Position numbers: made by a program | Part shown: one piece after another, positions 45,001 through 48,000 of the stretch | Layout of the letters: the number at the start of each line of letters is the position of its first letter | Position numbering within the stretch: the first letter of the stretch is position 1 | Assembly: GCA_963846575.1 (NCBI GenBank) | Contig: CAWJWJ010000001.1 | Location: 576,001-640,000 of the forward strand | Direction: 5' to 3' | Origin: an uncultured Nitrospiraceae bacterium | Lineage (GTDB): Bacteria > Nitrospirota > Nitrospiria > Nitrospirales > Nitrospiraceae | Length of the DNA stretch: 64,000 bases

Positions 45001-48000
45001 CCGCAGGAACGGCTGTTATTCGCCGTCGATTTCATTCCCGTCGGGACGGTCGCCTATCGGGCCCTGCCGGACGGCTATCCCGACGAGTGGATCGAATCTC
45101 TGAAGCAGGTCGAGCGCTTGGACTTCGACACGTTGGTCCCGGGGCATGGAAAGGTCGGTAAGAAAGCAGATGTGCGGCTCTTTCGAGCCTATCTCGAAGC
45201 GCTTCGCGCCGCCGTAAGGGAGCAGCTTCAGCAGGGCGCGAGCCTGGAGGAGGCGATGCAAATCGTCCGTCTGCCTCAGTACGAAGATTGGTACGGCTAT
45301 GCAGACTGGTTTACCGAGAACGTGGAAGGCATGTACCGGCACCTCGCGCAGCAGTCGCACAGATAGTTGCGCATCCTGCCTGCATGAGGCCTCAATCACA
45401 GCCGTTTGTCCGGCCGCCGGTGACAATGCGGAACCCGACCTTGAACGGGGGAAGGCCTGACGGCAACGCAATCGCTACGGTTTCTTCTTTTTCTTGTCGG
45501 CAGGGTTATCGGAAAAGAGCAACCAGGCGAGGACGACGAAGCCGATCGCAACACCCGTGACCGCCAGCCATGTGCCGAGTTTGTCCATTAGCTCCTCGTC
45601 TGTGGGGGTCCTTGTAACGCAGCCAGCGTGACTGTGTCGAGACGCGTCACTTTCAAATCATCGCCCACCGGCACGAGCTTGGCCGATCCTTCGACCACCA
45701 GGCGCCCGCTGACCCGTTCCCGCACGACGTGGGCAAAGGTGATGGAAGCCTGGCCCACTGCGGCCAGATTTGTCTCGACGGTCAAGGTATCACCATACCG
45801 GGCAGGCGAGCGATAGTCCAGTTCCGCATGCACGACCATGAACTGCCTGCCCTGATTGCGGAGCCCCGCTACCGAAACACCTCGGTCCTCGAGATACTGC
45901 GTCCTCGCCCGCTCGAAATATTTCAGATAATTGGCGTAGTACACTACCCCGCCGCAATCGGTGTCTTCGTAGTAGATCCGTATGTCCATGGAATGTCGAG
46001 CGGCGTCTCTCGTCACCCGGTCCTCGTCAGCGCATGCGTCTCATGATCCACGGGACGCTAAAGCGCCAACGTCGGGAACTTCGGCAAGGCAGACTCGCTC
46101 ACGCCGGTGATTTTCATGACCACGTCGGACAACTGCTGTACCCGCTCGGATTTGATCGCCTCGAATCCATGACCGAGAATGGCGTGGTTGGCGGCATCGA
46201 GCAGCGGCTTCATCTTCGGCCAGTCACGAAGAAACGCTTGGCCCATCTGGTCCCCAAGCCCCGCAAGCGCGCGAAACTGACCCTGCAACGGCAATTTGTA
46301 TTTCCCGTCCACGTCGTCCTGATAACAGGTGCGGCAGGTCTCACGTAGCGCCTCCGGAAGCTGGTCCGGCTGCACGTCCCAGGTCTTGATCTTGTACTGT
46401 TTGAACAGCTGACGCTGAGCGGAGGCTTCCAGCGCGCGCAGGAGGGCCACCATGGCCCGCTCGGGATCGTGGTCGAGCTGGGCACGACGGTGTGCGTGGG
46501 CTAAAAGGTCAAGCGCGACGCCCTCTTTGACCTCGGCAGGGTCGAGGACGAGCCGTTCCAGAAATCCACTGTTCGCCTTGATGAACGGGAGCAGCGCCTT
46601 CAGTCCGGGCGGCCCGCCCCACAACGACGCCATGTCGAGTGCCTTCAGCGAGGTCTTGAGTTTTTCCCAGGCCTGCCGGTAATGAAATTGTTCCCAGAGC
46701 GCATAACCTACCGCGAGGTCGCCTAAGGCGCGATAGAGCGGCTTCTGCCCCCCGCTCACGCGAGCTTCCAAAGTATGGAACAGAATGGACGCAGCCCTGA
46801 ACGATCCGTGATTGAACGCTCCGCACGCTTCCTTGCGAACGCCGACCGCCGCTTCATCCCAGGGGTTGCCTTGCAGCCAGCGCTTGGCATGGCCGTCGAT
46901 GACAATTGCTTCGTCGGCCTCCGGCCCCGCGACATCGACCAGGCTGATGACGCGCGAGGTCCAGGGTTGACAGGCAGAGGCCAGCGCTGCCCCCATCGCC
47001 GATGTCGCTCCGGTGAGATCCACGACCAGGTCGCCGACGTGCACATCCCAGGCTTGGAACAGGTCCTGGAGGGAGCGCGACAGAGCCTGGTGGCAGGCGA
47101 TCACATCCGCCGCATCAGGGGTGACCACCCAGTCCCATCGCTTCGGCATCTGCTGCACCTGTGGCTGCACCGCCTCTTCGACCAGCATCTTGGCCGATTC
47201 CGGCACAAAGAAGCAGAGCAATTCCGGCTGCAACCGGTTGATCACGTAGGCCGCCAGGGACGGGGCGTCCGTGAAGGCGACGACGAGGGCTTTGACGGGC
47301 GTATCCGACGGCATGATCCGCGGACTATACCATCGCACTCCGCGCCGGTTCAATGAACGGGGTTCGCACGGGTTCTTGTCGGAGCAGAGACCATCGTGAG
47401 CCCTGTCAACGAGCCGTGCCACCCTGGCCGCAACTTGTTCTCAAGAAACGGGACAAAGACGACCAGGCGGGACCGGAGTGGCATTTCCGGCCGGAGGAGG
47501 TCGGACTTCTCGCTCACCTGTCCCCCCCTGTGTGCCGTGGTTCACCGCCCGGCGGCAACGCCTCGTGCCCGAATATCGCGTGCCGTTTGAACACCCGGAG
47601 GAGATAGTAGAGCGATGGAAACAACAGGAGGCCTCCGACAGACATGGCGAGGAGGAGCCACCGGAGCGTCGGCTCCGGCGCAGCCGCCATGGAGATCGTC
47701 AGGTGCGGCGGGACGAGGTAGGGAAATTGCGCGAACGCCCAGGCCCAGATCGTCAACGTGACCTGCCCGACGATGCAGAGCCGCGCCCATCGCAAGCGTT
47801 TTTGCCAGAGGCACAGCAGTCCGGCAAGACCGGCGGCCGCAGTCCCGAACTGGACGGCCGCTCCCCACACGGTGCCGGTCAAGGCGTCCCATACGATGGG
47901 CGCGCCGCTTCGCGACGCCAGCAAGACCGTCTCCTCCAGCAACGAGGCCGCCAGTCCAGCCGTGATGGCGCGCCAGCGAAAGTCTTCCCTGAGCCTGTCG

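Follow-up and report, generated by a model that had tools for sequence, protein, structure and literature searches.

The gene under study lies on the reverse strand of the window, a stretch of 64,000 nucleotides from an uncultured Nitrospiraceae bacterium, and encodes a Csm6-like, TIGR02710-family CARF-6H-HEPN protein (46058–47314; 418 amino acids plus stop, with its ATG at 47314). The CARF domain occupies residues 1–150 (46865–47314), VIA matches to CARF domains spanning residues 5–151 of the structural model; the helical middle domain, 6H, occupies residues 151–262 (46529–46864; Pfam Csm6_6H at 160–246) and the HEPN domain residues 263–418 (46061–46528; Pfam Cas_Cas02710 at 268–403). A promoter-like sequence on the same strand, TTGAAC-N18-(TG)TATAGT (47324–47353), ends 9 nt before the ATG and is kept in all 29 aligned related loci; the predicted spacing would imply a near-leaderless mRNA. 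Downstream, also on the reverse strand, are a YbgC/FadM-type 4HBT acyl-CoA thioesterase (45588–46016) and an ORF of 37 codons for a peptide that has a single hydrophobic helix and a tail rich in Lys (45475–45588), whose ATG overlaps the thioesterase stop codon. The thioesterase ORF opens with a GTG at 46016; its orthologues begin with the Met whose codon is 45987–45989, giving a protein of 133 amino acids. No Rfam family matched the region from 45000 to 48000 of the window at E ≤ 1. A block shared by most related loci ahead of the promoter was considered as an operator candidate and rejected, as it is the start of a divergent NfeD gene, which abuts the Csm6-like gene in 25 of 30 loci. Genes for a cytochrome bd-like oxidase lie immediately upstream in the window and were likewise dismissed as conserved neighbours, being present in 1 of 30 loci.

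The genome-wide survey's note had described the protein as a full-length Csm6 homologue, and the family and fold searches bear this out. It scores 129.3 bits against the curated NCBIfam model TIGR02710 (cut-off 83.9), and matches Pfam Cas_Cas02710, the HEPN family PF09670 (5.2e-21; 75.4 against 27), and Csm6_6H, PF22205 (6.1e-10; 39.5 against 27.6). A profile built from 122 homologues found Thermus thermophilus Csm6 (TtCsm6; 5fsh, 8jbb, 8jh1 and 8jbc) over its full length with an E of 8e-24; this profile alone succeeded, Csm6 not being among the PDB matches when the single sequence was the phmmer query. The AF2 model (pLDDT 96.2) has 8jbc as its top Foldseek match (2.8e-13), and VIA aligned 384 residues of it to 8jh1 with a Z of 21.9, residues 1–418 of the model lying on 44–464 of the chain. 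Thus, a score above the cut-off of a curated model and a full-length CARF–helical 6H–HEPN fold both assign the protein to the Csm6 family. The model is nearer to the cA4-bound form of TtCsm6, 8jh1 (TMq 0.59, at the same Z), than to the apo forms (TMq 0.45–0.46, Z 19.5–19.7).

In the 122-homologue profile, the HEPN motif R415-N-S-A-L-L-V-H422 of TtCsm6 falls on A375-N-H-A-I-L-G-H382 (46169–46192), within A374-A375-N-H-A-I-L-G-H382-G-F. The catalytic Arg of the R-X4-6-H motif (R415, N416 and H422 in TtCsm6) is accordingly an Ala, with N376 and H382 in place; the survey's note was right about this substitution, but gave a Val at 379; most relatives have that residue there, and this protein has an Ile. 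It had also held several positions of the motif to be invariant. Among 119 close homologues (66–91% identity) this is so for A374, L380 and G383 (119 each) and nearly so for A375 and H382 (118 each), Asn being found at 376 in 90 and His at 377 in 81; the claim fails for H382 across the order, where 47 order-level sequences have His in 36, Tyr in 4, Gln in 2, and otherwise Asn, Ala or Phe. In the same 47 sequences, position 375 is Ala in 44, otherwise Thr, Val or Ser, and never Arg; position 376 is Asn in 15, His in 13 and Asp in 13, and positions 273 and 377 differ between families too. In 102 canonical representatives the corresponding frequencies are 1.0 for R375 and 0.98 for S378. Within the Nitrospiraceae, the remnant motif AAN[H/Q]AVLGHGF is nearly invariant, a change of N273 to His arises jointly with that of R375 to Ala, and a His is also found at 377; an altered catalytic site may therefore exist in this family, given the near-invariant remnant and the His residues at 273 and 377. 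In apo TtCsm6, N416 and H422 make inter-monomer hydrogen bonds (PMC10897365), and N376 and H382 would most likely survive as contacts of the HEPN dimer interface, with catalysis not their role.

The CARF site is disarmed as well as the HEPN site. The motif II remnant D99-L-T-G-A-T-S105 (47000–47020) contains the D99-L-T-G-A-T104 stretch that had been reported as kept, followed by S105, on which K137 of TtCsm6 falls in the profile alignment; the equivalent of G135 is an Ala. In all, the equivalents of T59, T81, G135, K137, Y161, N164 and E179 are replaced, with T15-D16-A17 where TtCsm6 has G58-T59-S60, P38 for T81, and T101-A103-S105 for T133-G135-K137. The Lys that follows the motif had been said to be lost in relatives as well, and indeed position 105 is never Lys, either in the 119 close homologues (Pro 98, Ser 9, Ala 9, Thr 3) or in the 47 order-level sequences (Pro 37, Ala 5, Ser 3, Val 2). 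The 102 canonical representatives have G15 at a frequency of 0.98, G16 at 0.87, S38 at 0.97, G103 at 0.98, K105 at 0.99, Y124 at 0.99, G127 at 0.91, R130 at 0.95 and E143 at 0.95. Judged by its residues, the protein lacks the combination of CARF motifs I and II and adenine contacts with which Csm6 proteins bind cA4, and also the ring-nuclease residues (Y161, N164 and the mobile-loop R172, R173 and E179 of TtCsm6), having S124, D127 and A143 instead. Across the order, positions 15, 16, 124, 127, 130 and 143 rank in the 87th–100th percentile of variability, and the ring-nuclease columns 124, 127 and 143 in the 94th–100th. In TtCsm6, the K137A substitution abolishes cA4 binding, T59/S60, T81, Y161 and N164 are likewise reported as needed for cA4 binding or cleavage, and activity is abolished by each of T59A/S60A, R415A, N416A and H422A (PMC10897365). 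As D99, T101 and T104 of motif II persist, the domain may still bind some small ligand.

The gene is intact in all 47 order-level sequences, in which no stop was found and conservation reaches 97% or more at 59 sites. The dN/dS ratio is 0.069 overall and 0.10, 0.047 and 0.07 for CARF, 6H and HEPN, respectively (medians of 310 out of 435 pairs from 30 loci, at a dS of about 1.1), which indicates purifying selection. CARF is the least conserved domain (mean entropy 1.72; 9 of 150 sites invariant in the 47 sequences) and 6H the most constrained part, with 24 of 112 sites invariant and with Lys, Trp and Gly-Pro loops that are invariant and specific to the clade. The invariant Lys and Arg residues (K191, K220, K224, K246, K263, K310, R160, R276, R293 and R391), together with Trp, concentrate in 6H and HEPN. 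The alignments thus indicate that constraint has shifted to the middle domain.

The survey's note had found neither a cas gene nor a CRISPR array in the genome, which is 99.93% complete, and our profile and repeat searches for Cas10, Cas1, RAMP, mCpol, SMODS and CRISPR arrays agree; the searches for mCpol and SMODS also bear on its doubt about other cOA-making cyclases, neither having been found. Three weak matches to TIGR02578 (Csm1; 15–29 bits) were rejected, as they are below the cut-off and confined to model positions 2–108, in our view the N-terminal HD part; one mCpol match of 16 bits is also below its cut-off, and two three-copy regions from the k-mer CRISPR scan (C1:1115330 and C2:1716376) are coding-type tandem repeats and not arrays. 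In our sample of 401 genomes of the order, the Csm6-like gene is present in 367 genomes and 53 of 54 genera and Cas10, the source of cOA in type III CRISPR-Cas, in 19 of the 401 and in none of 30 genomes of the same genus; the gene is not tied to type III systems, and the proposed independence from CRISPR is upheld. In three Nitrospirales genomes with Cas10 (G042, G105 and G036), a further Csm6 paralogue, intact in its residues, lies 11–18 kb from Cas10. Phylogenetically, the 18 degenerate sequences group together as a single clade (SH-aLRT 98) inside a Nitrospirota clade, the outer branches of which (f23 and f14) keep the canonical residues, and the tree mirrors the taxonomy. Together with the dN/dS of 0.07 and the 367 genomes, this agrees with the earlier description of the gene as kept and vertically inherited. 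The protein belongs to a lineage of the TtCsm6 type (TIGR02710) that is peculiar to Nitrospirota and passed on vertically, and that lost both the cA4-binding and ring-nuclease residues and the HEPN catalytic Arg at the base of the Nitrospirales.

In 53 of 55 loci (30/30, 5/5 and 18/20), the neighbouring thioesterase, to which attention had already been drawn, comes after the Csm6-like gene and shares its strand, the two exceptions being f2/f3 loci, and the spacing of the two genes is tight or overlapping even where the proteins are 46–55% identical. The thioesterase has one genomic copy by tblastn, scores 92.9 bits against TIGR00051 (cut-off 68.7), matches Pfam 4HBT and 4HBT_2, and falls below the cut-off of TIGR02799, the equivalog for tol-pal-associated YbgC (115.5 bits against 141.35); no tol or pal gene is among the Pfam hits in the window. 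The thioesterase is also missing from four of five checked genomes without the Csm6-like gene, and one complete genome keeps the thioesterase and lacks the Csm6-like gene. None was found within 1.5 kb on either side of seven Csm6 loci of the sister lineages, and the association may be synteny inertia within one order. In 29 of 30 loci of the Nitrospiraceae the thioesterase is followed by the 37-aa ORF, a diverged form of which is present in one f3 locus; the peptide matches no Pfam or NCBIfam family. A predicted complex of the Csm6-like protein and the thioesterase scored 0.00 in two runs that had no controls and was counted neither way.

The protein shares with TtCsm6 (5FSH, 8JBB, 8JBC and 8JH1) the TIGR02710 family, the CARF-6H-HEPN architecture and full-length fold, the R276-R277 helix, E296 (E332 in TtCsm6) and G383. 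It differs from TtCsm6 in that the equivalents of R415 and of seven CARF residues are gone, no type III system is found nearby or in the genome, and the gene is in a predicted operon with a thioesterase. A further comparison is with residue-intact orphan Csm6 proteins of sister Nitrospirota (L048–L050 of f23 and L047 of f14), which belong to the same clade (SH-aLRT 100; 37–40% identity) and whose genes likewise lie apart from cas genes, in housekeeping neighbourhoods, with an NAD kinase neighbour in three loci. Unlike the Nitrospirales protein, L048–L050 keep every canonical CARF and HEPN residue scored; none of these loci adjoins a thioesterase, and Cas10 is present elsewhere in three of the four f23 genomes tested. 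Precedents for CARF-fold proteins that are regulators, not nucleases, are RtcR and Csa3 (PMC4012209), which carry AAA+/HTH or wHTH outputs and are thought to bind ligands. The CARF part of our model matches Csa3 with a Z of 11.5–11.7. In contrast to both, the Nitrospirales protein has a degenerate pocket and a 6H and dead-HEPN output; Pfam found Csm6_6H and Cas_Cas02710 only, and thus none of the AAA+, HTH or wHTH fusions typical of CARF transcription regulators. Among inactive HEPN domains, a survey of that superfamily gives Swt1 and MNT-fused HEPN as examples in which Rx4-6H is lost, the fold is kept and a binding or regulatory role is proposed; these examples are from other families and contexts, none of them a Csm6-type CARF fusion, and Cas_Cas02710 is entered there as motif-conserved ('Yes') (PMC3710099).

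An intact, strongly constrained gene is thus present in almost all genomes of the order, nearly all of them without type III CRISPR-Cas, and this Csm6 relative, stripped of the residues for signal binding and RNA cutting, probably has a new, non-defence job. As a whole, we favour, with a probability of roughly 0.55, a disarmed Csm6 kept as a non-catalytic housekeeping scaffold or regulator. The protein would no longer sense cyclic oligoadenylate or cut RNA by the HEPN mechanism, and the Csm6 fold, presumably dimeric by analogy, would serve as the scaffold or regulator itself. Its working surface, if a single one, would now be 6H and those parts of HEPN with the invariant Lys, Arg, Trp and Gly-Pro loops, and it would act jointly with the thioesterase and the peptide in a housekeeping process, probably one related to membranes or acyl-CoA. 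In a bolder version, which we regard as improbable, an ancillary nuclease of type III CRISPR would have become, throughout the order, a cOA-blind, RNase-less scaffold. It would govern or position the YbgC-type thioesterase and the 37-aa membrane peptide by means of a new basic 6H surface, and possibly of a Rossmann-like pocket re-tuned to recognise the 3'-phospho-ADP moiety of CoA or acyl-CoA.

These readings have to be weighed against three others. The two degenerate sites and the absence of CRISPR-Cas could suggest the remnant of a lost type III system, in decay and kept only by chance or briefly; we rejected this on the dN/dS, which is 0.07 even at a dS of about 1.1, and it is made highly improbable too by an ORF intact in 47 of 47 sequences, by a gene retained in 53 of 54 genera, by the conserved promoter and by newly fixed, clade-specific residues. 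A non-catalytic nucleic-acid binder is a rather unlikely alternative, in which the inactive HEPN groove and a basic 6H, or 'HTH', would bind RNA or DNA for transcriptional or post-transcriptional regulation and the thioesterase would be nearby through mere synteny. The gathering of invariant Lys, Arg and Trp in 6H and HEPN would suit such a protein, the middle domain of TtCsm6 has been named HTH (PMC10897365), HEPN domains without catalytic residues have been proposed as nucleic-acid binders (PMC3710099), and the thioesterase adjacency is limited to one order. However, that adjacency stays tight or overlapping at 46–55% protein identity, four of the five checked genomes without the Csm6-like gene lack the thioesterase too, Pfam shows no DNA- or RNA-binding family besides Csm6_6H, and neither a target nor an operator emerged, the block conserved upstream being coding sequence of the divergent NfeD gene.

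The third reading is closest to the sensor of an (oligo)adenylate-like ligand that the survey's note had proposed: a still ligand-activated effector, the remodelled CARF domain of which senses a non-Cas10 adenylate-like messenger, and whose HEPN domain, with His273, His377 and His382, gives a modified RNase or another output. D99, T101 and T104 of motif II, the R276-R277 helix and E296 are kept, as are N376 and H382 in the Nitrospiraceae, where the His at 273 was gained jointly with the loss of the Arg, and the predicted model resembles the cA4-bound more than the apo form. A working catalytic or ligand site should, however, be the most conserved part of a protein, and this reading is weakened because the former contact positions (15, 16, 124, 127, 130 and 143) belong to the most variable ones and positions 273, 376, 377 and 382 differ between families. 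Moreover, the equivalent of K137, needed for binding in TtCsm6, is never Lys in the 119 and 47 sequences, the genome lacks Cas10, mCpol and SMODS, and genomes with Cas10 have a separate, intact Csm6. We therefore find the effector improbable, and the proposal of an oligoadenylate sensor unsupported, since the residues for cA4 binding and cleavage are replaced, several of them at positions that rank with the most variable in the protein.

That Cas components are exapted for roles outside defence is described as a general trend (PMC12669027). The literature that we searched on TIGR02710, Csm6 and CARF holds no description of the Nitrospirales clade, which the 2020 classification of the CARF superfamily may list as a subgroup, and no clear case of an order-wide, vertically inherited, non-defence exaptation of a cOA effector. 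If the bolder version is true, this would be the first time that a Csm6 has given rise to a regulator of lipid or acyl-CoA metabolism. The disarmed Csm6 comes with natural controls, in the form of intact sister copies in the phylum and intact cas-linked paralogues in the order, and therefore offers a clean system for the stepwise disarming of a signal-activated suicide nuclease and for the uses of a ligand-free CARF-6H-HEPN scaffold. Hundreds of Nitrospira genomes carry the automatic annotation 'TIGR02710 family CRISPR-associated CARF protein', which is no sign of CRISPR immunity. Nitrospira are key nitrifiers, and the correct annotation of this conserved gene pair is therefore worthwhile.

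The Csm6-like protein is encoded on the minus strand at window 46058-47314, in an ORF that spans 47422 to 46058; its relatives, together with a conserved promoter, point to the ATG at 47314 as the start codon, for a product of 418 aa. Pfam finds Csm6_6H at residues 160-246 (6e-10) and Cas_Cas02710, the Csm6 HEPN domain, at residues 268-403 (5e-21), and NCBIfam TIGR02710 covers residues 21-402 with 129.3 bits (cut-off 83.9). A PDB search with the single sequence gave no match; a profile of 122 homologues (A1) matched Thermus thermophilus Csm6 (TtCsm6; 5fsh, 8jbb, 8jh1, 8jbc) across positions 10-401 (E 8e-24). 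TtCsm6 entries also head the Foldseek search with the AF2 model (pLDDT 96.2, pTM 0.91; first 8jbc at 2.8e-13), and VIA-align matches 384 residues of the model (1-418) to 8jh1 chain 44-464 at Z 21.9. The protein is thus a full-length Csm6 homologue, as the genome-wide survey's note had it. The model fits cA4-bound TtCsm6 (8jh1; TMq 0.59, same Z) better than the apo or A2>P forms (TMq 0.45-0.47, Z 19.5-20.1), which hints at a closed-like resting conformation, or may instead reflect modelling bias.

Residue equivalences were taken from the profile alignment to TtCsm6 and from the accessible part of PMC10897365. According to that part, K137A abolishes cA4 binding in TtCsm6 and T81A weakens it ~100-fold; with T59A/S60A, both cleavage and activation of the RNase are lost; Y161 and N164 drive cA4 cleavage; R415A, N416A or H422A singly abolishes RNase activity; and, in the apo protein, N416 and H422 take part in hydrogen bonds between the monomers. 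The TtCsm6 residues G58-T59-S60, T81, T133-G135-K137, Y161, N164 and E179 correspond in the Csm6-like protein to T15-D16-A17, P38, T101-A103-S105, S124, D127 and A143, respectively, and R415-N416...H422 to A375-N376...H382; E332 is the same residue (E296). The functional-site columns are 87-100% conserved among 102 canonical representatives and hold different residues in the Nitrospirales-type sequences. Among 119 close homologues, position 105 is Pro in 98, Ser in 9, Ala in 9 and Thr in 3, and position 375 is Ala in 118 and Val in one. In 47 sequences from across the order Nitrospirales, the corresponding figures are P37/A5/S3/V2 and 44 Ala, the rest being Thr, Val or Ser; position 382 is His in 36 and position 376 is N15/H13/D13. 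An invariant Ala had been reported in place of the HEPN Arg; the Arg is indeed absent, but the Ala is not strictly invariant. In the same 47 sequences, variability at the former ligand-contact columns 15, 16, 124, 127, 130 and 143 reaches the 87th-100th percentile. A working site is expected to be the most conserved part, whereas the old ligand and catalytic sites are the least conserved; at the level of these alignments, both the CARF and the HEPN functional sites are shown to be disarmed. The proposal of an (oligo)adenylate sensor finds no support in this variability or in the Ser at the equivalent of K137.

The host genome (two contigs, 4.20 Mb, 99.93% complete) holds no CRISPR-Cas system, in agreement with the survey. 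Searches for Cmr2-type Cas10, a check that the survey had left to be made, and for Csm1-type Cas10 returned only matches of 15-29 bits, all at model positions 2-108, presumably the N-terminal HD part. Cas1, RAMP and, as other possible cyclases, mCpol and SMODS were likewise absent, and a repeat scan found no CRISPR array. In a sample of 401 genomes of the order, the Csm6-like gene is present in 367 (298/318 high-quality genomes; 53/54 genera) and Cas10 in 19, with none in the 30 genomes of the host's own genus; both tallies include two genomes flagged as unpublished (G281, G394), on which the other claims do not depend. The genomes with at least two Csm6 matches are largely Cas10 carriers, and the second copy lies 17.6 kb (G042), 11.3 kb (G105) or 14.7 kb (G036) from Cas10 on the same contig. 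All scored residues are canonical in the second copy at locus L079, and those at L080 and L081 are canonical, including K105, Y124 and R375...H382, except for motif I (G-D-I) and a gap at position 130. Type III immunity, where present, is therefore served by a separate, intact Csm6.

Identity to the query tracks taxonomy (80-89% within the genus, 62-76% within Nitrospiraceae, 46-55% in other families of the order), and the gene is absent from one small-genome family (0/5). In a maximum-likelihood tree of 59 proteins, the 18 degenerate sequences form one clade (SH-aLRT 98); this and the identities uphold the vertical inheritance claimed earlier. The degenerate clade lies within a larger one made up of Nitrospirota alone (SH-aLRT 100), where the outer branches are family f23, from a different class, and f14, from the same class. 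Every scored residue is kept at the f23 loci L048-L050 and most are kept in L047 and P0129, with P0125 intermediate. Sister-lineage Csm6 genes lie away from cas genes and adjoin NAD kinase in three loci; the residue-intact genes of L048-L050 (genomes G424, G408, G446) are divergent to it. Cas10 occurs elsewhere in the genome in three of four f23 genomes tested; in G408 (99% complete) none was found with TIGR02577.

Over 30 loci, dN/dS (Nei-Gojobori) is 0.069 for the whole gene, 0.10 for CARF, 0.047 for 6H and 0.07 for HEPN, as medians of pairs with 0.1<dS<1.5 (310/435 for the whole gene) and with dS, at ~1.1, near saturation. Such purifying selection excludes a decaying relic. Sites at least 97% conserved number 24/112 in 6H, 26/156 in HEPN and 9/150 in CARF, so that conservation is shifted to the middle of the protein; among these conserved sites are numerous Lys, Arg and Trp positions as well as two Gly-Pro loops missing from canonical Csm6.

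Downstream, on the same strand, lies a single-copy (tblastn) YbgC/FadM-type 4HBT thioesterase gene (TIGR00051, 92.9 bits against 68.7; its TIGR02799 match falls under the cut-off). The adjacency reported earlier recurs at 30/30 Nitrospiraceae loci and at 5/5 and 18/20 in other families, one of the 18 being a fragment; with that locus excluded, the alignment ends in these other families range from a ~40 nt overlap to a 34 nt gap. No thioesterase was found within 1.5 kb on either side of seven sister-lineage Csm6 genes, and this query found no thioesterase either in four of five genomes from which the Csm6-like gene is missing. In the fifth, a complete genome of the order (L046, G014:C1:1493832-1497248), the thioesterase is kept and the Csm6-like gene missing, as if cleanly deleted; the thioesterase there directly adjoins a divergent 193-aa ORF, matched by size only to the SIS gene of L043. 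The thioesterase stop is overlapped by the ATG of a 37-aa ORF (45475-45588, minus strand) encoding a single hydrophobic helix plus a Lys-rich tail; it is almost invariant in 29/30 Nitrospiraceae loci (the contig ends within the other), and one locus of family f3 holds a diverged copy. It matches no Pfam or NCBIfam family and probably represents a small membrane protein that annotation has missed. A promoter-like TTGAAC-N18-TG-TATAGT (-35/extended -10; 47324-47353, minus strand), conserved in 29/29 aligned loci, ends 9 nt before the ATG of the Csm6-like gene, which suggests a near-leaderless transcript; Rfam has no match at the locus.

The remaining neighbours vary and are ordinary housekeeping genes (NfeD/SPFH, SIS, sigma-54 regulator, LipB). 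Two cytochrome bd-like oxidase subunit genes (47514-50260, minus strand) separate the Csm6-like gene from NfeD in this genome only (1/30 loci); NfeD/SPFH divergently abut it in 25/30 relatives, which makes the two oxidase genes look inserted. A SIS-domain gene and a 332-aa ORF without a family (51958-53515, plus strand) recur immediately upstream of the Csm6-like gene, in divergent orientation, in loci L042 and L043 of family f2 as well as in L033 and L034, the mark of an old conserved neighbourhood. In 2/5 f2 loci, the thioesterase has a LipB-type octanoyl/lipoyl transferase gene on its 3' side, directly after it in L043 (9862-10551) and with genes for Fur and cytochrome c peroxidase in between in L045 (12210-12938). 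Elsewhere in the window (33071-34072, plus strand), neighbouring Ribonuclease (barnase-type, 4.9e-15) and Barstar (4.2e-27) genes are, by their Pfam matches, a pair of the secreted-RNase/inhibitor type.

Two alternatives to a non-catalytic scaffold or regulator that works with its operon partners are live. Within Nitrospiraceae, His273, His377 and His382 could form an altered catalytic site; the inter-monomer contacts of N416 and H422 in TtCsm6 offer, by analogy, a non-catalytic ground for the retention of N376 and H382 there. The protein could also bind nucleic acid. What is shown is a Csm6 homologue that is disarmed, CRISPR-independent, vertically inherited and strongly constrained, and whose gene is linked to those of a thioesterase and a probable small membrane peptide.

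In the accessible parts of the sources, each CARF family has members unlinked to CRISPR-Cas (PMC4012209), the Cas_Cas02710 HEPN motif is listed as conserved ('Yes'; PMC3710099) and exaptation is named as a trend (PMC12669027). Our literature search, with the 2020 CARF classification outside its coverage, found no description of the disarmed Nitrospirales clade; new here are the counts across the order, the intact paralogues linked to cas genes, the tree with its stepwise pattern, the selection measured by domain, and both the peptide and the promoter. In Nitrospirales, the Csm6-like protein would be a non-catalytic scaffold or regulator, its working part a newly acquired surface of the 6H and HEPN domains, and it would probably act together with its operon partners, the choice of partner and process being a proposal.
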